Shown here: positions 1 through 45,383 of the stretch, piece by piece
Layout: the number at the start of each line of letters is the position of its first letter
How positions within the stretch are numbered: the first letter of the stretch is position 1
Source: Kofleriaceae bacterium
Lineage (GTDB): Bacteria > Myxococcota_A > Polyangia > Haliangiales > Haliangiaceae
Direction: 5' to 3'
DNA: 64,000 nucleotides
Assembly: GCA_965215005.1 (NCBI GenBank)
Contig: CBDCCZ010000006.1
Span: 128,001-192,000, forward strand
Made by a program: the position numbers and the translations under genes
Notes under the pieces: model-generated
The model's database searches: none
Told to the model about the DNA's origin: nothing
The model's input: the letters and a program-made list of their open reading frames with translations, nothing else

Positions 1-669
1 CTGGCGCCGCAAATCCTGCGGGTCGCAAACAGCCCTGCGTACATGGGCAGCGCCAAGGCGGTCAACCTGATGCAAGCGATTGGCCGGGTGGGTCTGCAGC
101 AGCTGCGCGTCTTGATGTTAGAAGTGTCTGCGCACCAGCTGTTCCAATCGCGCAACCGCAAGATTCGCCGCGCCTTCGCGAGCCTTTGGGATTATTCTCT
201 GGCCGTCGCGTCGCTAAGCCGCGAGCTCTGCAAGGCGGTAGGCGGTTCCATCGATCCCAGCACCGCCTACCTGGCGGGGCTGCTTCACGAGGTTGGCAGG
301 CCGGTGGCGGCGACGCTGCTGCTCGAGGCCGAAAAGCACCTGCCGGGCGCCAAGCAGGCGTGGATGAACGACTCGATCTGGTTCGGTATCGTCGAGTCGT
401 GCCAGCGCGATGTCGGCGCAGCGCTCGCGCGCACGTGGGAGCTCTCCGCCGAGGTCGTGGCGTCGATAGAGTCTCTCGAGTACGACCTGGCGTTCCCATG
501 CTCGTGCGCCAACGTGGTGCGACTGGCGTCGGCGATGGCGCGCAAGCAGGGGCTGTTGGCCACCAACACCATGGGTGACGGCGGCCTACAAGACACCATC
601 GATACCGGCCGGCTGGTGATGCAGCTCAGCGACGATACTCTTACCGGTGTTGCAGCCACTCTGCCGTAA
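1..669 (+). CDS. HDOD domain protein, 5'-truncated at the window edge
   Basis: Frame is open from base 1: LAPQILRVANSPAYM...NLMQAIGRVG...LWDYSLAVA...AYLAGLLHEVG, matching the HDOD motifs (LRxANS, AGLLHDIG-like). Confidence 0.85.
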   Translation: MAPQILRVANSPAYMGSAKAVNLMQAIGRVGLQQLRVLMLEVSAHQLFQSRNRKIRRAFASLWDYSLAVASLSRELCKAVGGSIDPSTAYLAGLLHEVGRPVAATLLLEAEKHLPGAKQAWMNDSIWFGIVESCQRDVGAALARTWELSAEVVASIESLEYDLAFPCSCANVVRLASAMARKQGLLATNTMGDGGLQDTIDTGRLVMQLSDDTLTGVAATLP

Positions 670-671
670 CG

Positions 672-2066
672 TCAGTCATACCGCAGCCCCTCGACTGGGC
701 GCAGAGAAGACGCTCGCAGCGCGGGTAGCAACGTGGCGACGAAGCTGATGACCATGGTGATGACGGCTACCAGCACGACCTCGCGCGGCTCGACTTGAAT
801 CGGCAGGCGATCGATCAGATAGACCTTGGGATCGAGCCGATAGCCATACCCAGCCACCACATGGCAAACCACCAGCCCGATCGTGAGCCCGAGCGTGGTA
901 CCAACTGCGCCGATCGCGGTTCCAACGATCAAGAAGATCGTGCCAATGCCTCGGGAGGTCGAGCCCATCGACTTGAGGATGGCGATCTCACGGGTCTTGT
1001 CGGTGACCATCATCGTGAGCGCGGAGATCAAATTGAAGGCGGCAACAGCGATGATTAGCGTCAAGATGACGAGCAGCACCAGCTTCTGCAGCGTGAGTGC
1101 GGCGAACAGGTTGCGGTTCAGCTCGTTCCAGTCCTGCACCATGTAGGGTGAGCCGCCGAGCTCTGCTTCGAGACGATCGGCGATGATTGCCGCGCGCTCG
1201 ACATCCCTCACTTTCATCTCGACGCCCATCACCTGATCGCGTTGCTGAAGGATCTCTTGCGCCTCAGCGAGGCTGATGTACATGAGCCGGCGGTCGTACT
1301 CATCAAAGCCGCTGTAAAAGATGCCGCGGATGATGAAGTCGCGCGTGACCGGCGCTTCGGCTTTGGCGGTCCAGCTCTCGAGATCGATGTTCGACAGCGG
1401 CGCGACCAGCGTGACCTTATCGCCAACGCTTGCGTGCAGCTTTCGCGCGAGCTCCTGCCCCAAGATGATTGGCGCGGGACCATCGGCCGGACGGTCGCTC
1501 AGAACGCGCACATCGCCCTCGATCATGTGTTTCTGTAGGTCGAGCACGTCCGTGACGCGTTCGGGATCCACTCCCTTGACGGCCACGCCGGAGAGCTCTC
1601 CTTGGCCACGCGTCACCAGCATCTCCACAAAGATGAACGGCTGGACCGATAGCACGTCGGGGTCGATGTTGCGCGCCGTCTCCAACACCTCGCGATATTC
1701 GCTGAAGTCCGCCGTGTTCTTCATGACCAGGACGTGCGCGTTGACGCCAAGCACCTTCTCGCGAAACTGCTCTTGAAAGCCGGTAGTCACCGCCAACACT
1801 GTCGTAAGTGCTGCAACCCCCAACACCACGCCCAGCACCGACACGGTGGTGAAAACCGAGAACAAGCTCAGCAAGGCAAATAGCGTCGTGCCGATCATGC
1901 CGGCCACCAGCAAGATGACGCCGCCGGGCGAGCTACCATCCGAGGTGAGGAGCAGATAGATCGCCAGCGCGATGGTGGCACCGCTCGCCGCGAGTCCGAG
2001 CAGTGCCCGGGGCGATCGATCACCGCGATACAGGTAGCGAAGGCCTATCAAGAGCTCATACGACAC
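672..2066 (-). CDS. LolC/LolE (FtsX-like) ABC transporter permease with extra N-terminal TM helices
   Basis: SVLGVVLGVAALTTVLAVTTGF, VKGVDP, DWNELNRNLFAAL, AAFNLISALTMMVTDKTREIAILKSMG, PVEGLRYD C-terminus. Confidence 0.88.
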   Translation of the reverse strand: MSYELLIGLRYLYRGDRSPRALLGLAASGATIALAIYLLLTSDGSSPGGVILLVAGMIGTTLFALLSLFSVFTTVSVLGVVLGVAALTTVLAVTTGFQEQFREKVLGVNAHVLVMKNTADFSEYREVLETARNIDPDVLSVQPFIFVEMLVTRGQGELSGVAVKGVDPERVTDVLDLQKHMIEGDVRVLSDRPADGPAPIILGQELARKLHASVGDKVTLVAPLSNIDLESWTAKAEAPVTRDFIIRGIFYSGFDEYDRRLMYISLAEAQEILQQRDQVMGVEMKVRDVERAAIIADRLEAELGGSPYMVQDWNELNRNLFAALTLQKLVLLVILTLIIAVAAFNLISALTMMVTDKTREIAILKSMGSTSRGIGTIFLIVGTAIGAVGTTLGLTIGLVVCHVVAGYGYRLDPKVYLIDRLPIQVEPREVVLVAVITMVISFVATLLPALRASSLRPVEGLRYD

Positions 2067-2278
2067 GAGGCGGCTATCTTGTCAGCTGGCGGCGGCGTCG
2101 GCACCACCGCGGGAGCGAATTCGCTCGGCGTCGCGGGATTTGCCGCCGGAGCGAAGGAGGTTGCGCACGGGCGGCGAGGTCAGTCACGCGGCCTGCACGA
2201 GGCGTGAGCCCGAAACGCGGCGCGCCCCGGAGCCATGAAAGCACCGGGGCGCGCCGAGAGGCAACGGTTTGCGTATCG

Positions 2279-4348
<2,070 letters not shown>

Positions 4349-5755: not shown

Positions 5756-6730
5756 CTACGTCGCCTCGCCAACGGTATCGGCCACGTAGGCGCCGCGCTC
5801 GCCCATCGGCGAGGGCTCGCCTTGCGTGGTGTCCTCGCAGGTTTGATGCTCGAGCTCGCTGTTGATTTCGGCGCCTAGCAGCACCACGAACGCGCTCAAC
5901 CACAGCCACAACATCAACACCACCACCGCACCGAGCGAACCGTAGGTCTCGCCATAGCTGCCGAATCGGCCGGCGTAGAGCGAGAATGCCAACGACAGCG
6001 CAACCCACAGGACGGTGGCTACAGCGGTTCCCCAGGTGACCCAGCGCCAACGCGGATCGTCGCGATACGGCGCCACGCGGTACACGACGCTCAGACCACC
6101 GACGAACAGTCCGATTAGCAGTGGCCAGCGCGCCAACGACACCAATGTCTGCACCGTTTCCGAGAACCCGAGACGACCCAGCAACACCGGAACTACCGCG
6201 ATAGCAGCGATGCAGATGACTGCCGTGACCACTCCGCCTACCGTCAACAGCAAAGACAGGGCGTTTGAGCGCACGAAGCTGCGGGTGTCGTTTTCGTCGT
6301 AGGCGATGTTGATGGCGCGAATGAGCGCTTTGGTACCCTTGTTTGCGCTCCACAAGCTTGCCAGGACGCCAAATACCGCGCCAAACGAGAGCGCCCCGGG
6401 CGAGCGATCGATTGCGTGGGTGAGCTGCTCGAGAAGCAGCTCCCGGGCCTGGTTTGGCAGCACGCCAGCCAGCGAGGCGAGCTGCCGCTGCACCTCGGCC
6501 GGGTCGGCGAACAGCCCATAGATTGCAACTGCAGCGAAGACCGCCGGGATGATCGCCAATAGTGAGTAGAACGCCACTCCAGCGGCCACCAAGGCCAAGT
6601 CGTCGCGGCCGACCTCGCGATAGGTTCGCACAGCCACGTCCCGCCATCCGCGCAGGGGAATTTCTCTTGGTGCTTGGGCACGACGTCCGCGAGCCTCATC
6701 GGTGTCGTTAGGTTGCGATGGTTCCGCCAC
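5756..6730 (-). CDS. YihY/BrkB family membrane protein
   Basis: AAGVAFYSLLAI, INIAYDENDTR, YGETYGSLGAVVVLMLWLWLS, LLGAEIN. GTG start at 6730 is preceded by AGGAGG. Confidence 0.92.
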   Translation of the reverse strand: MAEPSQPNDTDEARGRRAQAPREIPLRGWRDVAVRTYREVGRDDLALVAAGVAFYSLLAIIPAVFAAVAIYGLFADPAEVQRQLASLAGVLPNQARELLLEQLTHAIDRSPGALSFGAVFGVLASLWSANKGTKALIRAINIAYDENDTRSFVRSNALSLLLTVGGVVTAVICIAAIAVVPVLLGRLGFSETVQTLVSLARWPLLIGLFVGGLSVVYRVAPYRDDPRWRWVTWGTAVATVLWVALSLAFSLYAGRFGSYGETYGSLGAVVVLMLWLWLSAFVVLLGAEINSELEHQTCEDTTQGEPSPMGERGAYVADTVGEAT

Positions 6731-38651: not shown

Positions 38652-38700
38652 GCTGTGCTCCTCTTTCTTCAGACGTCTCGTAGAAAACCGACACGGGTCG

Positions 38701-38716
38701 TGCAGCATCCATGCCC
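38701..38716 (-). promoter_or_regulatory. Sigma54-type promoter for the TPP/enolase/FAD operon
   Basis: Minus strand GGGCATGGATGCTGCA (GG-N10-GC), about 50 nt above the start. Confidence 0.55.
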
Positions 38717-38866
38717 CGGGGTGTAATGACCTGTGCGCGGTGCTCCCGCGGGCAATGCGGCGCGATCTCGCCACGTCGTGTCATGCACGCACGTTGGGAA
38801 TTACGAAGATTTGGCGAAAAACCCTTGGGAACAGCCCTTCTAGCCGTGGTAACAGCACTGGAAAGC

Positions 38867-38882
38867 TGGAACGCGACTTGCG
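38867..38882 (+). promoter_or_regulatory. Sigma54-type promoter for the DUF883 gene
   Basis: TGGAACGCGACTTGCG (GG-N10-GC). Confidence 0.55.
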
Positions 38883-38942
38883 TAGCAGCTCAGGAAGCTC
38901 GGCACTTGTTCATCCGAGCCACTCGCACAAGGAGGAAGCGAC

Positions 38943-39185
38943 GTGCAATACCGTGAATCAATCGAGACTCAGACCCAGAATCTAAATGCCGGCATGAAGC
39001 AGAAGGCAGATGCCCTCGCGGATGCGAGCCGCCGTCGCTTTCAGGATGCGAGCCGGTACTTCCGCGAGAACGACGCCCGCACGATGGCGACTGATCTCGG
39101 CGGCGTCATCAAGACGCACCCGATGCAGTCGTTCCTACTCGGCGTCGGAGTTGGCTATCTGCTGCTCCGCCTGTTCCGCGACTAG
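38943..39185 (+). CDS. ElaB/YqjD/DUF883-like small membrane-anchored stress protein
   Basis: IKTHPMQSFLLGVGVGYLLLRLFR C-terminus; AGGAGG RBS. Confidence 0.8.
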   Translation: MQYRESIETQTQNLNAGMKQKADALADASRRRFQDASRYFRENDARTMATDLGGVIKTHPMQSFLLGVGVGYLLLRLFRD

Positions 39186-39208
39186 TACGCTGCCGCGGGA
39201 TTGATGGC

Positions 39209-39349
39209 GCAGAAATCCGCCGCCCCGATGCGGGGCAAGGGCGGCAGATTTCTGCTGCTCAGGCGCCCCCTTTGGCGTCTCCCCAAGCGACTGTTGTTTT
39301 CCTAGCGGTTCACGACTTCCGCCCTGAACCAGACTTCCGCCGTGAACCA
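39209..39349. other. Structured intergenic element (two hairpins + 18-bp tandem repeat); terminator and/or sRNA candidate
   Basis: Bulged stem GCAGAAATC...GATTTCTGC (39209-39255), stem AGGCGCC-cccttt-GGCGTCT (39261-39280), GACTTCCGCC(C/G)TGAACCA x2 (39314-39349). Confidence 0.45.
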
Positions 39350-39507
39350 ATAGTACGCCGGCGCATGCGTCGTGACGCGATTGTCGGGCGGCCCCGTGCG
39401 GGCGAGGGCCAACAACCGCTACTCACGGCGCGTATCGCCGTCCTCCCACATTTTCCCCACCTCTACCATGTCGAGCGGCTCACGCAGCTCGCCGTGAAGC
39501 CCGCCAA

Positions 39508-41184
39508 TCAGCTCGAGTTACGTACGTCTCTGCGCTGCGGCGCGGCTAGAATCGCGCGAAGCTGCCGTGCCTCCGCCGGCTTGGCGATATGCACGTCGAA
39601 CCCCGCATCCAGCGCCCGCGTTCTTTGGTCTAGCGCACTGTAGCCGCTCAGAGCGACCAAGATCATCCCACCGCACCCCGGGTCGAGGCGAACCCGGCGC
39701 GCGAGCTCGTAGCCTTCGATTCCGGGAAGGCCAAGGTCGACGAACGCCACCTCGGGCTTCCACTCTGTCAGGAGCAATAGCCCCTCAGTTCCGTCTGGGG
39801 CCGCACGCACCTCATGGCCCCACTGCTCGAGCATCATCGTGACGAGCTCGCGGGTATCGGCGTTGTCCTCGACCACGGCGACTCGCCTCGCAACCGTGTC
39901 GCCGATCTCCGGCGCCGCACTTTGCCGGCGCAGCCGCGCGCGTTCGGTCTCGAGCGGCAACTCGACAGCAAACACGCTGCCGTGACCGACTCCGTCGCTG
40001 TGCACGGATATATGGCCGCCATGGAGCTCCACCAATCGACGCGCCAGAGTCAGCCCAATTCCCAGCCCACCCGCACTTCGATCGATCGTCGCCTCGGCTT
40101 GCGTGAAGAGCTCGAAGATGTACGGCAGGACCTCTGCCGCGATGCCGACGCCATCATCGGTCACCGTTACGCGAGCCCGAGGAAGTGCACCATCCTCGCT
40201 GGTCACCACCGCCACTTCCACGACGATCGTTCCTTCAGCGCCGCTGTACTTGATCGCGTTGTCGAGCAAGTTGGTGAACACCTGTTCGAGTCGCGTCACG
40301 TCGCCGTCGATGACGAGGGGACCTTCAGGCCTCATAAGCTCGATGCAGCGACTACCATCACCGCCCACCACGCCGCTGCGGAAGTCCTGGCGTGGTTGGT
40401 TCGACGTCTCCTCCATCGCGCGTTGCTCTGCGAGCGCTTCAGGGTTTCTGCCGTGAGCCGTGAGCCGCTCACGCAAATTTACGATCAGGCGACTGAGCAG
40501 CTCACCGAGCTCGATGGGCTCTCGGCGCAGGACGATGCGGCCGCGGCTCACCCGCGACACGTCGAGCAAATCCTCAATGAGGCGCCCCAGTTGCCGGCTC
40601 TGCCGCTCGAGCGCATCGAGGCTCCGCTCTTCGATAGCGTCGCGGGCCGGGTGACGACGCAACAGCGGCACCGCCGCCGTAATGCTGGCAAGCGGGTTGC
40701 GGAGCTCGTGCGCTAGCATCGCGAGAAACTCGTCCTTGAGCCTATCTGCGTCGGCGAGTCGCCGCGCGCGATCGCGCAGCTCGCCTTCAGCGTCCTGCAA
40801 GCGAGCGAGCGAGCGCACAGTCGCGATGAGCTCCTCCGGCTCGAACGGCTGCGCCAAATAGCCATCGGCGCCAGCCTCGAGCCCTTCGACGCGCTTGTCT
40901 GCGGTGACGTAGGTGGCGGAGCTGTGCAGCACCTTGATGCGCTCGGTGTGCGAGTCGCTCTTGATCCGCCGGCACACCTCGAATCCGTCGATCTTAGGCA
41001 TGCGCACATCGAGCACCACGATGTCCGGTTGCGGCTCTTCATAGATCCGCACCAGCGCCTCGTCCCCCCCCACCGCTTCGACGACGCGAAAGCCGGCATT
41101 GCGAAGCATCTTCGAGACGAGGTAGCGGCTCGCGGGGTTGTCGTTGACGTTGAGGATGAGAAAGCGGCTGGTGTCGAGACTCAT
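39508..41184 (-). CDS. Hybrid histidine kinase REC-HisKA-HATPase-REC
   Basis: N-terminal REC (VVLDVRMP), LAHELRNPL, NLLDNAIKY, DDGVGI, GLGIGL, C-terminal REC (FVDLGLP...IAKP); ATGA-coupled to the upstream kinase. Confidence 0.93.
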   Translation of the reverse strand: MSLDTSRFLILNVNDNPASRYLVSKMLRNAGFRVVEAVGGDEALVRIYEEPQPDIVVLDVRMPKIDGFEVCRRIKSDSHTERIKVLHSSATYVTADKRVEGLEAGADGYLAQPFEPEELIATVRSLARLQDAEGELRDRARRLADADRLKDEFLAMLAHELRNPLASITAAVPLLRRHPARDAIEERSLDALERQSRQLGRLIEDLLDVSRVSRGRIVLRREPIELGELLSRLIVNLRERLTAHGRNPEALAEQRAMEETSNQPRQDFRSGVVGGDGSRCIELMRPEGPLVIDGDVTRLEQVFTNLLDNAIKYSGAEGTIVVEVAVVTSEDGALPRARVTVTDDGVGIAAEVLPYIFELFTQAEATIDRSAGGLGIGLTLARRLVELHGGHISVHSDGVGHGSVFAVELPLETERARLRRQSAAPEIGDTVARRVAVVEDNADTRELVTMMLEQWGHEVRAAPDGTEGLLLLTEWKPEVAFVDLGLPGIEGYELARRVRLDPGCGGMILVALSGYSALDQRTRALDAGFDVHIAKPAEARQLRAILAAPQRRDVRNSS

Positions 41185-43211
41185 CCAGCCTCCTCTTCGA
41201 CCATTCCCGGCAATAGCCCCGCCTTGCCCAGCGCATCGCGAATTCGGTGTATCGCCAGCTCGCGTGACAGCGCTTCTTTGGACAACACGCCTTCGGTGCT
41301 CAGCTCGAGCTGTGCTCGTTGTGCCGGTTCCAATTCTTGGGCTGTGCAAATGATGACGGGTGTCGAGCGAGTGATGGGATCGGCTTTGAGCTCATCGAGC
41401 ACGTCGAAGGCAGTCACGTCCTCCAAAAGAAAATCCAGGAAGATGACCCCCGGCCGCTCATCTCGCGCGAGCCGCACGCCGAGCTCGCCATCGCCGGCTT
41501 CGATGACGTCGTAGCTGGTGCCCTCCAGGTGCTTGCGAAACAAGTAGCGCGCCGTGGGATCATCATCGATATAGAGGACCTTCGCGCGATGGCCCTTGTG
41601 GACCAACGCTGCGAGCTTGCGGATCAAGTGGTCCTGATCGAATGGCTTGAGCCAGAATTCGTCGGCGCCGAGCGCGCGCGCGCGACGCTCGCGATTGGTC
41701 ACCGTCACCACCAACACCGGGATGTCACGGGTGGAGACATCGGCCTTGAGCTGCGACAAGAATCGCCACGACGTGTCCTGCTCGAGCATGATGTCGAGTA
41801 CCACCGCGGCAGGACGGCGGCGGCGCAAGAGCCCCTCGGCTTCAGCAACGGTTCGGGCCGGCAGCACCTGAAAGCCCGCCATCCGCAAGAATCGCTCGTA
41901 CACCAGCATTGTCTTGCGATTGTCCTCGAGCACCAGCACCGGCGCTCTTCCCGGCTCTGGAAACTGCCCGCGCTCTTGCAGCTCATCGACGGCGCGCACC
42001 TCGGGATGTACCGCAGGAACAGTGACAGTAAACGTAGAGCCTCGCCCAAGCTCGCTCTGGACCGTGATGTCACCCCCGAGCAAATGGGCCAACTGTCGCG
42101 ACAACGACAACCCTAGCCCTGTCCCCGGCACCTCGCGGTGACGAGCGGTATCGAGCTGCACGAACTCCTCGAAGATTCGCTGCTGGTCCGCAATGCCGAT
42201 ACCGATGCCGCTGTCGCGAACCCAAACCGTGAGCTCACCATCCGCCGAGCCGCGAGCACCAACGCGCACCTCTCCTTTGCTGGTGAACTTGAGCGCGTTG
42301 GAGATGAGGTTGCGGAGGATCTGCGCGAGCTTGCCGCGATCGGTGCGCAGCTCGAGAACCGTCTCGGGTTCCTCGAACACCATCTCGACCGCGGAATCGG
42401 CCACTAGCGGGCGCATCATGCCACGCAGGGACAACAGGAAGTCCGCCAGATCGAGCTGCTCGACCTGAAGCCGCACCGTGCCGGAGTCGATCTTCGAGAG
42501 GTCGAGCAAGTCGCTTACCAGCTGCGAGAGCTCCGCTGCCGCCGATCGAATCAGCCCGACTTGCAGGAGCTGTTCGCTGTTGAGCGCGCCATCCGAGCCA
42601 TCGAGCAGCAGGCGCGAGAGCCCCAGGATCGAGTGGATCGGCGTGCGTAGCTCGTGGCTGACGTTGGCGACCATCCGCGTCTTGATCTCCGAGCTCTCCG
42701 CGAGCGACTCGTTCTTGTCCTCGATCTCCGCGTGCAGAGCGACCACGCCGCGGTGGGACTCATCGAGCTCTGCGTGCAAGCGAATGAGCTCCGCATTGCG
42801 CTGCTCGAGCTCGCGATTCTGCCGCGCAATCTCGCGATTGAGCTCGACGACCTCATCCATCGTTTGTCCAACGCGCGCCAACGCAGCGCCGTGGTCGTCG
42901 GGGATCAGGCTGCCGAGAATATCGATGCCGGTGGCGCTCGGAACGGCGGAGCACGAGACCACCGCAGGCCGGCCTTCGACGCAGAGAGGCAATTCCCAGC
43001 CAGTGACTTCGCCGACTCGAGCGCGCGCCAAGAACTCAGCAACCTTGCCTTCGCTGCCGCTTGGCGCCAACTTGCGCAGCGCCGTGCCGATATCGCTGCG
43101 CAAGTAACGACGCGCCCGCGGATCGAGCGCGGTGAGGGCGCCATCGGTATCGACCGAGAAGCGCATCTCACGGCTGAATCTATGCAACTGACGTTGCAGC
43201 GCATCGCTCAT
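41181..43211 (-). CDS. Hybrid histidine kinase (degenerate PAS-like N-terminus, coiled coil, HisKA, HATPase, REC, REC); no TM helices
   Basis: VSHELRTP, NLISNALKF, DSGIGI, GTGLGL; REC1 VVLDIML...LKP; REC2 IFLDFLL. Confidence 0.93.
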   Translation of the reverse strand: MSDALQRQLHRFSREMRFSVDTDGALTALDPRARRYLRSDIGTALRKLAPSGSEGKVAEFLARARVGEVTGWELPLCVEGRPAVVSCSAVPSATGIDILGSLIPDDHGAALARVGQTMDEVVELNREIARQNRELEQRNAELIRLHAELDESHRGVVALHAEIEDKNESLAESSEIKTRMVANVSHELRTPIHSILGLSRLLLDGSDGALNSEQLLQVGLIRSAAAELSQLVSDLLDLSKIDSGTVRLQVEQLDLADFLLSLRGMMRPLVADSAVEMVFEEPETVLELRTDRGKLAQILRNLISNALKFTSKGEVRVGARGSADGELTVWVRDSGIGIGIADQQRIFEEFVQLDTARHREVPGTGLGLSLSRQLAHLLGGDITVQSELGRGSTFTVTVPAVHPEVRAVDELQERGQFPEPGRAPVLVLEDNRKTMLVYERFLRMAGFQVLPARTVAEAEGLLRRRRPAAVVLDIMLEQDTSWRFLSQLKADVSTRDIPVLVVTVTNRERRARALGADEFWLKPFDQDHLIRKLAALVHKGHRAKVLYIDDDPTARYLFRKHLEGTSYDVIEAGDGELGVRLARDERPGVIFLDFLLEDVTAFDVLDELKADPITRSTPVIICTAQELEPAQRAQLELSTEGVLSKEALSRELAIHRIRDALGKAGLLPGMVEEEAG

Positions 43212-43288
43212 GTGACTGCCCCTCGCCTGCGTCGGCCATTCCAGAGGCCTATGATAAGGGACATGCCGGGACGGATCGGAAGAGCGTA

Positions 43289-43957
43289 TCAGCGATTATT
43301 TTTGATACGATCGGCCGCCACAGATAGCAGACGACAAGCCTGCGCCACGATGTCCTCTGCAGATCGGCCGATACCGTCCGCGCCGTAGTCTGCGGCCACC
43401 GCGCCAACGGGGAACGCTTGCCCCCCCACGAGGATCGGGCACGGATGCGCCAATGCCTCGCGTACGCATCGTGTCGCTTCGCGAACTCTACTGAGATGAA
43501 ACCCCATCGTCGCCGACAGCGCCAATAGGTCCGGCGGACGGCTGCGACACATGTCCGCGAGACTGCGACTCGGCACGTTCTCGCCCAGATAGGTCACCGC
43601 GAAACCGGCGAGATCGAGCGCGTCCGCGGCAAGCCGAGCCGGAAAACCGTGCAGCTCGCCCTCGACGCACGCCACTAGCACCGAACGCTGCAGCGCCGGA
43701 GCGGGCGTAGCGTGGCGATATAGGTAGCTAAGAGCCAGCTGCGAGATGGCGGTGGCCATGTGCTCATCAGCAACGCTGATGCGGTTCAGTTCCCAGAGTC
43801 GACCGATCTCCCGCTGCGCCTCGCCGATCACACCGGTCGCCACAGAGCTCACCGCGAGTCCCGCTTCGACACCTTCTTCAATGACGAGTCGCAGTGCCTC
43901 TTGGCGATCGCCAGCGAGCTGCGCGGCCACGAAACGCTCCCTAAGCTGGTCGATCAC
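43289..43957 (-). CDS. Stand-alone cobalamin-binding protein (four-helix cap + Rossmann B12-binding domain) with CarH-type Wx9EH motif
   Basis: IGRLWELNRISVADEHMAT (Wx9EH), ACVEGELH (ExH), YLG, LALSAT, ILVGG; no DNA-binding or enzymatic domain. Confidence 0.9.
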   Translation of the reverse strand: MIDQLRERFVAAQLAGDRQEALRLVIEEGVEAGLAVSSVATGVIGEAQREIGRLWELNRISVADEHMATAISQLALSYLYRHATPAPALQRSVLVACVEGELHGFPARLAADALDLAGFAVTYLGENVPSRSLADMCRSRPPDLLALSATMGFHLSRVREATRCVREALAHPCPILVGGQAFPVGAVAADYGADGIGRSAEDIVAQACRLLSVAADRIKNNR

Positions 43958-44202
43958 TGCTCTATTGTAGTGTGCGGTGGGCGTTGTGCAGCGGCGGCGT
44001 CGACCGCGACGACGGCGTCGCGCTTCTACGCATCGGCCGGCAGTGCAGAATTTGGGACGCCGATGGGTTTGGGGGCGAAGTCTCCAGCGCACCGATATCG
44101 AGACCACCCGCCGGGTGATCTCGGGGCCAGAACCTACGAAATTCGCGGCCTATGGCGGCGAAATCGAAGCTGGTGTCGAACGCTTACAGCGCCCGTGCCA
44201 TC

Positions 44203-44218
44203 CGGCATGGAGGCTGCA
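44203..44218 (+). promoter_or_regulatory. Sigma54-type promoter for the NHL lipoprotein gene
   Basis: CGGCATGGAGGCTGCA; 14 of 15 core bases match the 38701-38716 motif. Confidence 0.55.
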
Positions 44219-44261
44219 TTTGTCGCGGCACAGGAGCTCTGACGGGCTCGCGGAGGCAGCC

Positions 44262-45383
44262 GTGCAGTATCTAAAATCATTGACAATTCTCTTCCTTTCG
44301 CTCATCGCGGCCTGTGGCAGCGACGGTGGGGGCTCTGACCCGGGAATCGACGCCGGCGGCACCGGTGGCACCGATGGTGGCGACGGTCCGGTGCAGGAGC
44401 CGCCGGGACCTTTGGCCGAGGGCGCGGCGACGCTCGCTGGAGGCCCGATTTCCGGCCGCGTCGATGGCGACCGCAACAGCGCCAGCTTCAACAACCCGGT
44501 CAATGTCGAGGTCGGCCCCGACGGCAACATCTACGTCGCCGATTTTGATAACGGGCTGCTGCGGGTGATCACGCCGCAAGGGACCGTTTCGACGCTAGCA
44601 CCGGCCGAAGCCGATTTCTCGCGGCCCTTCGGGCTAGCCTTCACACCCGACGGCTCGCTCTACGTGCAAACCGACCGAGACACCGGAGGGCAACTGAGTG
44701 GTGCGCTCTGGCGCGTCGATACCCAAACCGGCGAGGCAACGCTCGTGGAGGATACGGTCGGCCGTATGCGTGGCCTGGCCGCATTGCCCGATGGTCGACT
44801 CGTCATGGCGGAGTATCAGAAGCACGTCATCGTGGTGATCGACCCGGCAACCGGCGTGGTCAACACCATCGCTGGCGCCTACGACCAAATCGGCAACACC
44901 GACGGCGTCGGCGAAGCCGCTCGCTTCAACATTCCCTACGACCTCGTGCTGCACCCCGATGGCTATCTCGTCGTCGCCGACTACGGCAACAATCAACTGC
45001 GCCGCATCGACTTGAACGGCAATGGCCCGGCCGAGGTCACCACCTTGGCCGGCACTGGCATGGCCGGCGTGGTCGACGACACCTTGGCCGCGGCTGAGTT
45101 CAATCAGCCGCAAGGACTTGCCGTGGACGATGCTGGGATGCTCTACGTCACCGACAGCGCGGGGTTCGTGATTCGTCGCGTCGACCTCGCGGCGGACTCG
45201 GTGACGACGATCGCCGGGACCGGCGAAGCCGGATTTCGCGATGATGAGAATCCGCTTGCAGCACAGTTCTACGGGCTAGAAGGCATCGCTGTCGACGATG
45301 CCGGTACCTACCTCTATGTCGCCGACGGCAGCCGCGGCGAAGACGCCCGCTACCACCGCGTGCGTCGCGTGTCGCTCCCGTAG
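44262..45383 (+). CDS. NHL-repeat beta-propeller lipoprotein
   Basis: LIAAC lipobox; repeated FNxPxG(L/V)...YVAD..N..(L/I)R and (L/I)AG.G.....DG....A.F motifs. Confidence 0.88.
   Translation: MQYLKSLTILFLSLIAACGSDGGGSDPGIDAGGTGGTDGGDGPVQEPPGPLAEGAATLAGGPISGRVDGDRNSASFNNPVNVEVGPDGNIYVADFDNGLLRVITPQGTVSTLAPAEADFSRPFGLAFTPDGSLYVQTDRDTGGQLSGALWRVDTQTGEATLVEDTVGRMRGLAALPDGRLVMAEYQKHVIVVIDPATGVVNTIAGAYDQIGNTDGVGEAARFNIPYDLVLHPDGYLVVADYGNNQLRRIDLNGNGPAEVTTLAGTGMAGVVDDTLAAAEFNQPQGLAVDDAGMLYVTDSAGFVIRRVDLAADSVTTIAGTGEAGFRDDENPLAAQFYGLEGIAVDDAGTYLYVADGSRGEDARYHRVRRVSLP

Follow-up and report, generated by a model that had tools for sequence, protein, structure and literature searches.

In the analysed window, a 64,000-nt stretch of a Kofleriaceae bacterium contig, three consecutive minus-strand genes encode what we regard, with moderate confidence, as a light-sensing unit in which a stand-alone B12-binding protein controls a hybrid histidine kinase (HK1), the first of a two-kinase cassette, by binding its PAS domain. 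The sensor family is known; its kinase partners also serve stressosome gene clusters.

The gene for the B12-binding protein (43289..43957, minus strand; 222 aa) encodes a putative stand-alone light-sensing module of the photocobilin/CarH type. It is followed, after a spacer of 77 nt (43212..43288, minus), by the HK1 gene (41181..43211, minus; 676 aa; PAS-HisKA-HATPase-REC-REC), whose stop codon overlaps the start of the HK2 gene (39508..41184, minus; 558 aa; REC-HisKA-HATPase_c-REC) in an ATGA read from the sequence at 41181..41184 (minus). Translations and a Pfam scan confirmed this trio, its gap and its coupling as the first-pass annotation had described them. The length of 222 aa follows from a GTG start at 43957; the true start is uncertain by about nine codons, and an existing gene call is 213 aa long.

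In the B12 protein, Pfam finds only PF02607 (B12-binding_2; aa 5-79, E 2e-11) and PF02310 (B12-binding; aa 92-202, E 2.8e-13), and a DNA-binding domain is absent. The segment WELNRISVADEH holds W55...E65 H66, a Wx9EH motif (43760..43795, minus; read from the sequence and a family alignment) that we take, from work on CarH, to be the upper-face motif of light-sensing B12 domains. W55, E65 and H66 are invariant in all 20 aligned relatives (alignment A1), as are E101 and H103 within GELHG; E101-L-H103 (43649..43657, minus) contains the predicted lower axial His ligand of cobalamin, and GELHG aligns with GEWH of photocobilin 8J2X. The best solved relatives are the photocobilins 8J2X/8J2W (E 3.3e-26), with a further match to 8J2Y (E 1.4e-20); the CarH match is far weaker (E ~4e-7), and the AerR structure 7TE2 gives E 4.6e-4. 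The protein had initially been called a CarH-type sensor, and the Wx9EH motif and the ELH histidine are indeed there, but it is closest to photocobilins, which are B12 and biliverdin photoreceptors. We infer that it binds adenosylcobalamin; a PduO-type adenosyltransferase is present in the source genome.

Many homologues carry the JGI name 'methanogenic corrinoid protein MtbC1', and the NCBIfam models MtbC and MtgC match below threshold, which would make the B12 protein a corrinoid methyl-carrier. We give this almost no credence, given an NCBIfam score of 39.5 bits against a cut-off of 350 (the CarH model scores 49.4 against 400), methyltransferase families matched by 0 of 10 ORFs scanned around the trio, the presence of Wx9EH, and conserved partners that are kinases and a globin.

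An HK1 orthologue is found at 42 of the 47 closest B12 loci and an HK2 orthologue at 36, in four gene orders (B12-HK1-HK2, B12-globin-HK1-HK2, HK1-HK2-B12 and divergent), and the linkage spans Myxococcota, Gemmatimonadota and some Proteobacteria. At the genome level, sampled in 121 genomes of one order, the HK1 N-terminal domain occurs in 19 genomes and the B12 orthologue in 23, including all 19; in each of the 19 the B12 gene lies on the same contig at most 760 nt away. The N-domain profile has one match in each of five module-bearing genomes. The adjacency of B12 protein and kinase is therefore conserved, and its persistence in varying gene orders supports a functional link between them. Because the trio stays together in many bacteria, switching of the kinases by the B12 protein in response to light is likely. 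The B12 protein can also have other partners, since HK1 is missing at five of the 47 loci (L035, L038, L041, L047 and L048, of which L041 is so counted yet has a flank of only 939 nt) and the N-domain from 4 of the 23 genomes that have the B12 orthologue. The 75 ORFs that flank 22 B12 loci include no conserved output regulator, and neighbours differ from locus to locus, so the suggestion that the module controls surrounding stress genes is unsupported.

The first ~110 aa of HK1 (aa 1-110; 42882..43211, minus), the predicted docking site of the sensor, have no Pfam match. The domain nevertheless folds as a PAS domain in an AlphaFold2 model (mean pLDDT 87.1), in keeping with the degenerate PAS-like start noted in the first-pass annotation; Foldseek gave 336 PDB matches at E ≤ 0.001, and among the matches listed all are PAS domains, including those of FixL, PpsR and ARNT. 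Next comes a coiled-coil linker (42684..42875, minus), matched by 739 library proteins at E ≤ 0.001; its motif LHAELDESHRGVVALHAEIEDK also occurs in a phytochrome kinase and in kinases whose N-domain is RsbT-like. The transmitter and two receivers (41256..42683, minus) comprise, by Pfam, HisKA at 177-244 (H186), HATPase_c at 291-400 and receivers at ~425-536 and 545-652.

A complex model of the B12 protein with HK1 aa 1-125 scored 0.36 (runs 0.35-0.37), against 0.01 for the best of three controls, with a partner pLDDT of at least 76 and runs sharing at least 40% of contacts. Of 157 solved complexes, 116 attain the mark for such models, as do 2 of 215 mismatched pairs; just 18 of the 157 solved complexes and both passing mismatches attain it at 0.60 or under. 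A score of 0.36 falls in a range where most models prove wrong, except for pairings that were already probable. Docking of the B12 protein on the kinase, as earlier envisaged, thus separates from the controls, and the model lends weak support to the PAS domain as the predicted site.

A globin of the bilin-binding BBAG-2 type, with the RGMC motif, adjoins the B12 gene at 36 of the 47 close loci, and at some of these loci genes for a heme oxygenase and a pre-PcyA bilin reductase accompany it. By profile, the globin matches the globin domain of photocobilin (8J2X residues 222-325, E 2.5e-8), with allophycocyanins as weak matches. The first-pass annotation had mentioned neither globin, bilin reductase nor heme oxygenase, nor that sensors of this class have been published. 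Globin and bilin reductase are absent from the window; elsewhere in the source genome, on contig C2, a full-length RGMC globin is ATGA-coupled to a bilin reductase (Fe_bilin_red). The single heme oxygenase match of this genome lies ~25 kb from the B12 gene, and in L030, L040 and L100 a heme oxygenase is directly upstream of the B12 gene. In L045 (Chondromyces apiculatus DSM 436) the B12, globin and reductase genes stand in a row, and we presume that these are CAP_1520/CAP_1521 themselves.

This pattern could mean that the globin contacts HK1 while the B12 protein tunes the globin, a split photocobilin assembled here from two contigs: the globin is between or beside B12 and HK1 at those 36 loci, the genome keeps its full-length RGMC globin coupled to the reductase, and photocobilins house both chromophores in one unit (PMC10979010). 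We think this unlikely, because the constant pair is B12-HK1, which persists without a strong globin match in the window and at eight other loci (L009, L011, L013, L020, L024, L032, L042 and L046; the contig of L046 ends 204 nt past the B12 gene, and in L042 a weak, divergent globin-like match adjoins it). Two genomes with globin-less loci (G462 and G428) have no globin match anywhere and three Polyangium genomes have weak partial matches only, while the model of the B12 protein with the PAS domain cleared its controls, if weakly. Since the globin is outside the window and undetected in G462 and G428, its part is uncertain.

The dispersal of the cluster, with globin and reductase on contig C2 and heme oxygenase ~25 kb off, also bears on whether the adjacency has regulatory meaning here at all. 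The B12 gene might be a leftover beside kinases that have their own promoter and another PAS input; other PAS domains bind small ligands, and the 77-nt gap could hold a promoter. A TATCAT box flagged in this gap is present, but a consensus scan gave 0 sigma-70-like sites in 38700-44300 and neither a sigma-70-like nor a terminator-like site in the spacer. As no promoter-like site was found, reading frames and motifs are intact, and B12 and HK1 lie similarly close at other loci that lack the globin (the HK1 match starts 6 to 226 nt after the B12 match ends), we judge a leftover gene highly improbable and retain the B12 protein as the predicted sensor of HK1.

In HK2, the first receiver (aa 10-123; 40816..41157, minus) is atypical in an alignment of 14 orthologues (A4): D59 is kept, N14 is found in 13 of the 14, and Q or E occupies the expected position of the conserved Lys. 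From general knowledge of receiver domains, we take N14 to be the first acidic position and the Q/E to be the Lys position; judged by these residues, the domain may not be a normal phospho-acceptor. The transmitter and C-terminal receiver (39508..40737, minus; Pfam, and BLASTP against L122) consist of HisKA 150-213 (H159), HATPase_c 294-412 and a receiver at ~435-548. Pfam scans of HK1 and HK2 found no Hpt domain.

Similar kinases follow stressosome-like genes in the same order at two loci, L122 (Archangium gephyra) and L121 (genome G380): RsbR-like, STAS, RsbT-like, RsbT domain with PP2C, RsbT domain with HK1-type kinase, and REC-PAS-HK-REC. The HK1 core is 46-53% identical to the HK1-type kinases of these loci and the HK2 first receiver 55% identical (BLASTP) to that of the second kinase of L122, bearing out a resemblance to stressosome-type kinase pairs previously offered from recall. 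Mutual exclusion of the B12 protein and rsbRST holds per locus: STAS, HATPase_c_2 and SpoIIE are absent from the 75 ORFs flanking 22 B12 loci, and B12, globin, reductase and HK1 N-domain from 12 stressosome-type loci. It fails per genome, since one (G335) has both types of locus. In the source genome (92.8% complete) there are three STAS (PF01740) matches, all of them outside the window's contig, and a single one adjoins a HATPase_c_2 gene (contig C44); on these grounds the rsbR-rsbS-rsbT triad was not found genome-wide, and its reported absence stands. A careful kinase tree fixes neither B12-type nor stressosome-type input as ancestral. HK1 aa 127-666 share 56% identity over 541 aa with the phytochrome-type kinase P0238 (GAF-PHY-HisKA-HATPase-REC-REC), which nests among B12-type kinases in a 17-row tree (support 97/97); no PHY domain (phytochrome) was found in the source genome. 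Because it serves both stressosome-like modules, with their RsbT-like N-domain, and a fused phytochrome, the kinase cassette is an exchangeable output unit.

The B12 protein could instead set kinase activity by reporting cobalamin supply or redox state, a choice left open in the first-pass annotation; AerR/PpaA-type stand-alone regulators can respond to the form of cobalamin bound. This is very unlikely in our view. The Wx9EH motif and the His ligand do not vary among the aligned relatives, and the closest proteins of solved structure are photoreceptors. Bilin-binding globins, bilin reductases and heme oxygenases accompany the family, and a phytochrome-type sensor is found fused to an HK1-type unit; all of this argues for light. 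Under light sensing by the B12 protein, illumination would change the protein's state or oligomeric form, in line with published work on photocobilins, and the lit protein would change HK1 autophosphorylation through the PAS domain. A trans-encoded globin carrying biliverdin or phytochromobilin possibly joins in this control, and phosphotransfer would run between the two receivers of HK1 and HK2.

Photocobilins (SasPcob, AbDPcob; 8J2W, 8J2X, 8J2Y) share W...EH and E-x-H with the B12 protein. They bind AdoCbl and biliverdin, and light alters their quaternary structure along with enzyme activity, in trans as well; photocobilins that stand alone reportedly control a partner enzyme by protein-protein contact (Zhang et al. 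2024, PMC10979010). Their two domains form one ~340-aa chain, whereas here a 222-aa B12 protein is separate and the globin is on another contig; the partner here is a hybrid histidine kinase, and 'histidine kinase' has 0 occurrences in the main text of that paper (PMC10979010).

BBAG-2 proteins are biliverdin binders encoded alongside B12-binding proteins and pre-2 reductases (PMC10151467), and in Myxococcales pre-2 PcyA, BBAG-2 and B12-binding genes form a stereotyped three-gene cluster (Rockwell, Martin, Lagarias 2023, PMC10151467; Protein Sci 2026, PMC13446030), with CAP_1520/CAP_1521 characterised from Chondromyces apiculatus DSM 436 (PMC10151467; PMC13446030). The present module shares its B12-protein and globin families with this cluster, and its own genome's globin carries the RGMC motif named for it; in the window HK1-HK2 come directly after the B12 gene, whereas the published cluster has globin and reductase at the locus. 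Kinases are not discussed in these papers, the word 'kinase' occurring once in one main text and zero times in the other (PMC10151467, PMC13446030). Photoglobin and B12-binding genes, proposed as light sensors in a computational report without experiments, sit with histidine kinases and response regulators, among them in multi-kinase operons (Schneider et al. 2022, PMC8717448); the relevant passages of that report name neither the HK1-HK2 cassette nor a link of these kinases to stressosome loci, and its figures may show such operons. Earlier publications thus cover the B12/globin/reductase cluster and the connection of photoglobin-B12 to two-component systems, and the HK1-HK2 pair is not discussed in the main texts searched on these sensors.

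CarH/LitR repressors share with the B12 protein the Wx9EH motif, the His lower ligand and a B12 domain of four-helix cap and Rossmann fold, but they have a MerR-type DNA-binding domain missing here, and their similarity is weaker. AerR/PpaA are stand-alone B12-binding antirepressors that act through a PAS-containing partner, CrtJ/PpsR. The B12 protein likewise stands alone, and the HK1 N-domain has fold matches that include PpsR PAS domains, although sequence similarity to AerR is weak and the partner here would be a kinase, not a repressor. In the stressosome loci L121/L122, where HK1-type and HK2-type kinases follow RsbR-like, STAS, RsbT-like and PP2C genes, an RsbT-like HATPase_c_2 domain takes the place of the PAS domain of HK1. 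The Vibrio vulnificus stressosome module has a sensor kinase, VvD1, and a regulator predicted to act on c-di-GMP (PMC10014275); its architecture differs from the HK1-HK2 pair, VvD1 having ~1,060 aa or more since its deletion spans nt 12-3185 (PMC10014275). The bacteriophytochrome kinase P0238 carries its sensor within the kinase polypeptide, whereas here the B12 sensor would act in trans.

The locus consists of three successive minus-strand genes, and on this point translation and Pfam analysis agree with the first-pass annotation. Gene 1 (43289-43957, minus strand) encodes a B12 protein of 222 aa from a GTG start, in which Pfam finds the B12-binding cap PF02607 (aa 5-79) and the Rossmann-type domain PF02310 (aa 92-202). 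After a spacer of 77 nt comes HK1 (gene 2; 41181-43211, minus strand), a kinase of 676 aa with HisKA, HATPase_c and two receiver domains by Pfam, joined by an ATGA overlap to HK2 (gene 3; 39508-41184, minus strand), a 558-aa protein of REC-HisKA-HATPase_c-REC architecture by the same search. No Hpt domain was found in Pfam scans of the two kinases. The first receiver of HK2 keeps D59 and is atypical in 14/14 aligned orthologues, with Q or E at what we take, from general knowledge of receiver domains, to be the conserved Lys position and N14 (13/14) at the presumed first acidic position. A consensus scan of 38700-44300 returned no promoter-like sites and three terminator-like sites, all within coding sequence and at a count on the level of shuffled sequence. 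An inverted repeat of ~16 bp (CAGAAATCTGCCGCCC ... GGGGCGGCGGATTTCTG) at 39209-39254 of the window, ~250-300 nt 3′ of the HK2 stop and between convergent ORFs, could be a terminator, though it has no T-run.

The N-domain of HK1 (aa 1-110) has no family in Pfam or NCBIfam. It had been described as a degenerate PAS-like segment; AF2 modeling and a fold search show a genuine PAS fold. The model, built from 27 orthologues, has a mean pLDDT of 87.1; 336 solved chains match it at E ≤ 0.001, those listed being PAS domains such as those of FixL, PpsR and ARNT.

The B12 protein carries the motifs WELNRISVADEH and GELHG, and the residues of the Wx9EH motif and the His lower ligand (W55, E65, H66, E101 and H103) are invariant in 20/20 aligned relatives. 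The first-pass annotation had called it CarH-type, which holds for these motifs but not for its closest relatives: the nearest solved structures are the photocobilins 8J2X/8J2W (E 3.3e-26, residues 6-193) and 8J2Y (E 1.4e-20), compared with E about 4e-7 for solved CarH and 4.6e-4 for AerR, and the match to the NCBIfam CarH model reaches 49.4 bits where 400 would be needed. Photocobilins are photoreceptors that bind adenosylcobalamin and biliverdin; light acting on the B12 alters their quaternary structure and switches on attached or partner enzymes (PMC10979010). A word-indexed search in which 8,000 candidates were scored found at least 1,232 homologues of like length at E ≤ 0.001, the best of them 51-63% identical and the named ones mainly from Myxococcota. 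The label 'methanogenic corrinoid protein MtbC1', given by several sources, was rejected, its NCBIfam matches lying far under cut-off. The window's genome encodes on contig C42 (L086:5520-6443) a CarH-type regulator of 307 aa with the domains MerR HTH, B12-binding_2 and B12-binding, between genes for a family-2 glycosyltransferase and a methyltransferase, and therefore has a second, classical B12 photoreceptor candidate.

Adjacency of the B12 and kinase genes, for which a neighborhood comparison had been proposed, proved to be conserved. One genome per species was scanned, yielding 80 loci that were compared with the window's proteins by tblastn: 47 close loci, with a B12 protein at least 44% identical to the window's, and 33 more distant ones. 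An HK1 orthologue is present in 42/47 close loci (counting one, L029, with only a remnant of the N-domain) and an HK2 orthologue in 36/47; the five without HK1 are L035, L038, L041, L047 and L048, and the flank available for L041 is only 939 nt. None of the 33 more distant loci has an HK1 orthologue, and 14 of them have another histidine kinase within 1.5 kb. Carriers of the module include Myxococcaceae, Archangium, Polyangium, Nannocystis, Labilithrix, Kofleriaceae, Gemmatimonadaceae and Usitatibacter. Its genes occur in the orders B12-HK1-HK2, B12-globin-HK1-HK2 and HK1-HK2-B12(-globin) and in divergent arrangement, and because the order varies we favor selection on the B12-kinase linkage over inherited synteny. 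Among 121 sampled genomes of the order of Archangium gephyra, the N-domain occurs in 19 and the B12 orthologue (E ≤ 1e-30) in 23; all 19 fall within the 23, with the B12 gene and HK1 on one contig and at most 760 nt apart. The N-domain query gave a single match in each of five module-bearing genomes.

Several loci of the survey deserve separate mention. At L029:9369-9599 (Myxococcus sp. CA023) only N-domain residues 12-88 remain, between the globin gene and an intact HK2 orthologue, which looks like an HK1 deletion. A Polyangiaceae MAG has tandem B12-protein paralogues (L047:4806-5342 and 5794-6411) without HK1 or HK2, and its globin gene is on another contig. The module of L033, a record labeled Comamonas sp. 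KCTC 72670, is nearly identical to that of Myxococcus sp. Y35 (end branches in the kinase tree 0.02-0.03), and its genes are ordered as in Myxococcaceae; the organism label looks doubtful. In six loci from Longimicrobium and other Gemmatimonadota (L051, L053, L054, L058, L076 and L081) the B12 homologue is more distant (41-45% identity), and the gene after it is of kinase type but shorter and different, with matches that span HK1 aa 108-403. These form their own long-branched clade (support 100/100) and are a second, separate B12-kinase pairing.

Closer to the window's organism, a search of 40 relatives (E ≤ 1e-20) found no B12 orthologue, and neither did one of 100 further genomes from the phylum (E ≤ 1e-30) in which every candidate was scored. 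Among 300 other genomes of the phylum, with up to 14 first-look candidates per genome scored, the N-domain query identified at least one carrier, G324, of the same family, where genes for heme oxygenase, B12 protein, globin, HK1 and HK2 stand in a row. Its proteins are ~52% identical to the window's, no nearer than the myxobacterial ones. The distribution is patchy and would fit horizontal spread; horizontal acquisition is plausible.

The first-pass annotation had also likened the kinase pair to those of stressosome loci and had noted the absence of rsbRST. The absence was confirmed: three STAS matches occur in the genome (6.2 Mb, 92.8% complete), all of them on contigs other than the window's and none in an rsbR-rsbS-rsbT triad, although one, on contig C44, adjoins a HATPase_c_2 gene; neither STAS nor HATPase_c_2 was found in ten ORFs scanned around the trio. 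To follow the kinases, the linker of HK1 (aa 113-190, containing LHAELDESHRGVVALHAEIEDK) was used as a query against a library of 1.84 billion proteins, giving 739 matches at E ≤ 0.001. A Pfam scan took 65 of the 150 listed matches (those of at least 459 aa), 64 of which are histidine kinases; 17 have an N-terminal RsbT/RsbW-like HATPase_c_2 domain (19 with two weaker matches), one has CHASE3 and one, P0238, is of GAF-PHY phytochrome type. In the RsbT-domain kinases ELEETNRGVVALYAELEDK is present.

The first 215 residues of P0198, one of these RsbT-domain kinases, used as a query, match in 37/121 genomes of the Archangium order. Near-full-length matches (at least 209/215 residues) occur in 15 genomes, and in every one of these a stand-alone RsbT-like gene lies 1.0-1.3 kb upstream. 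Two such stressosome-type loci, L121 (G380) and L122 (A. gephyra), have in order an RsbR-like gene, a STAS gene, an RsbT-like gene, a gene for an RsbT-domain + SpoIIE/PP2C protein, one for an RsbT domain with an HK1-type kinase and receiver, and one for a REC-PAS-HisKA-HATPase-REC kinase; the C-terminal STAS of the RsbR-like gene is visible by tblastn only. A candidate bridge between the two inputs, the RsbR-like gene of L122 as a homologue of the bilin-binding globin type BBAG-2, was rejected (hhalign probability 0.1%, empty PDB search). The HK1 core (aa 113-410) is 46-53% identical to 11 stressosome-type kinases, compared with 49-58% to its B12-type orthologues, and HK2 is 55% identical to the second kinase of L122 over the 122 aa of the first receiver and 40% elsewhere. 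Mutual exclusion of the B12 gene and rsbRST, proposed as a check, is true of loci but not of genomes, A. gephyra having both: no STAS, HATPase_c_2 or SpoIIE was found among 75 flanking ORFs (of 121 candidates) of 22 B12 loci, and in 12 stressosome-type loci the B12 protein, globin, reductase and HK1 N-domain were all absent.

A careful tree was built from 68 kinase cores, leaving out L111, which duplicates the L121 locus, and HSPs that span less than 250 residues of the core. In it B12-type and stressosome-type kinases group together in one clade (support 87/99), to the exclusion of HK2 and a CHASE3 kinase, which served as outgroups; P0257, an RsbT-domain kinase, falls outside the clade. Together with the identities, this largely bears out the proposed kinship. 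The two labels can be separated by a single change with support of 54/99, in 44% of bootstrap trees. A quick tree had placed the B12-type clade as derived within the stressosome-type kinases; we dropped this arrangement, and claim no direction for an input swap, because the careful tree does not resolve the base. Between the GAF-PHY protein P0238 and HK1 identity is 56% over aa 127-666, a stretch that takes in both receivers and the C-terminal tail, and in a 17-row set P0238 groups inside the B12-type kinases (support 97/97). An output unit of the HK1 type is thus driven by a photoreceptor of red/far-red type as well, and P0238 suggests that a PAS docking domain and a fused phytochrome sensor have been swapped.

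A gene of 225-260 aa adjoins the B12 gene in 36/47 close loci. It has no family in Pfam or NCBIfam, but a profile search matches it to photocobilin 8J2X, in the globin domain that binds biliverdin (residues 222-325, E 2.5e-8), and weakly to allophycocyanins; as a lone sequence against the PDB it matches ApcE alone, at a non-significant E of 0.11. An RGMC motif runs through 17 aligned globins, with G101 and M102 invariant and R100 and C103 in at least 90%. This motif was named for BBAG-2 globins, which bind biliverdin and in Myxococcales accompany B12-binding proteins and bilin reductases of the pre-2 PcyA type (PMC10151467; PMC13446030). One of our loci, L045, is from Chondromyces apiculatus DSM 436, the source organism of the characterized CAP_1520/CAP_1521. 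A bilin reductase is also present in five loci, and heme oxygenase lies directly 5′ of the B12 gene in three (L030, L040 and L100).

The window has no globin gene, and in eight further loci that have an HK1 orthologue no strong match to the globin was obtained (the contig of L046 ends 204 nt after the B12 gene); in L042 a weak, divergent globin-like match adjoins the B12 gene. Of the genomes with globin-less loci, three from Polyangium and one from Gemmatimonadaceae gave weak partial matches only, and G462 and G428 no match to the globin query. We therefore regard B12-HK1-HK2 as the constant core and the globin as a frequent accessory.

Elsewhere in the window's genome the globin query matched contig C2 only, where L085:3317-4800 encodes a BBAG-2-type globin of 259 aa with RGMC, overlapping by ATGA with a bilin reductase gene. 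The globin is full length, its first half 43% identical to the globin of L006, and the reductase is a ferredoxin-dependent bilin reductase (PF05996, E 3.3e-24; top NCBIfam match PcyA, sub-threshold). Genes for a 538-aa NAD_binding_8 oxidoreductase and for purine synthesis precede the pair, which is the half of the photoreceptor cluster that the window lacks, relocated within the genome. The single heme oxygenase match of the genome (L102:6488-7180) is on the window's own contig C6, ~25 kb from the B12 gene and 4.5 kb past the right end of the window, and stands by itself, without a neighboring phytochrome. A genome-wide search for the PHY domain found none, and in a search covering globin and PHY the contig C2 globin was the sole bilin-binding protein identified. 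A PduO-type adenosyltransferase is also encoded.

The B12 protein is predicted to bind adenosylcobalamin and be light-sensitive, and would act on HK1 through the PAS domain; the globin encoded in trans may join as a second chromophore domain, and HK1 would hand phosphoryl groups both to the receivers it carries itself and to HK2. Docking on HK1 had been proposed together with an AlphaFold-Multimer check. The complex model of the B12 protein with the HK1 N-domain scores 0.36 (three runs 0.35-0.37), above the best control at 0.01, with partner pLDDT of at least 76 and at least 40% of contacts common to the runs, and the tool rates it 'weak support'; the mark for a complex is reached by 116/157 solved complexes and 2/215 mismatches, and at scores up to 0.60 lie only 18 of those 157 complexes and both passing mismatches. 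It is possible, though we lean against it, that HK1-HK2 is a portable output cassette plugged into three inputs, namely a stressosome-like partner-switching module via an RsbT-like N-domain, a fused phytochrome, and a trans-acting B12/bilin photoreceptor via PAS, and that it is gated here by the B12 protein alone, without a globin in cis, docking on PAS.

No conserved output regulator was found in the flanks of the scanned B12 loci. A Cache-HAMP chemoreceptor gene comes after the module in those scanned loci that belong to Archangium, Myxococcus and Pyxidicoccus; in L014, L026, L031 and L018 an sCache-HAMP methyl-accepting chemotaxis protein gene lies within ~0.5-0.8 kb downstream of HK2; this gene may be a lineage-specific output, or may reflect mere local synteny. 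Sigma-54 activators lie near the module in L011, L021 and L030. Neither kind of neighbor is conserved across lineages. The suggestion that the module controls surrounding stress genes finds no support in the window, where its neighbors encode an NHL-repeat protein, VKOR, GlgE, TreS-Mak, a TPP enzyme, an enolase-superfamily enzyme and an FAD oxidase.

B12 photoreception is firmly established chiefly for CarH-type repressors and, since 2024, also for photocobilins coupled to diguanylate cyclase; for a stand-alone B12 protein that controls a histidine-kinase phosphorelay there are, to our knowledge, genome-based predictions but no demonstration. The module is small, soluble, conserved and carried by culturable myxobacteria (Corallococcus, Archangium, Myxococcus, Polyangium and Nannocystis), which makes it a practical system for B12/bilin sensor signaling in trans to a kinase. 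Stressosome outputs outside Firmicutes are poorly understood, and work on the module would inform them too, since stressosome-like genes are followed by this kinase pair; if the cassette is indeed portable, one easy light switch could reveal the downstream role of the Gram-negative stressosome-output kinases, uncharacterized so far.

Already in print are the linkage of photoglobin and B12-binding genes to two-component systems as predicted light sensors (PMC8717448), the B12/BBAG-2/pre-2 reductase cluster with biliverdin binding by BBAG-2 (PMC10151467), the homology of the B12 protein and BBAG-2 to the two photocobilin domains (PMC13446030), and photocobilin structure and function (PMC10979010). 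The main texts searched do not mention the HK1-HK2 cassette as a constant partner of the B12 protein, the PAS docking domain of HK1, or the kinship of HK1-HK2 with stressosome-output and phytochrome kinases; Schneider Fig. 5, Rockwell SI Figs S11-S12 and Zhang Supplementary Figs 24-31 may show operons of this kind.

Set against known systems, the window's B12 protein has the Wx9EH motif and His lower ligand in common with CarH/LitR but lacks their MerR-type N-terminal DNA-binding domain, Pfam finding only the two B12 domains. It has the B12 domain of photocobilins, whereas the globin domain that these carry fused in one chain is missing: the protein stops after the B12 domain, and the homologous globin is the separate gene on contig C2. 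The first kinase of stressosome-type loci begins with an RsbT-like HATPase_c_2 domain where HK1 has its PAS fold. The window's B12 protein is of the same family as those of the pre-2 PcyA/BBAG-2/B12 cluster, being 44-58% identical to the B12 proteins of globin and reductase loci such as L045, L030 and L022; there the globin and reductase genes adjoin the B12 gene, where the window has its 77-nt gap. The window locus is a variant with dispersed sensor genes and otherwise an ordinary member of the family.
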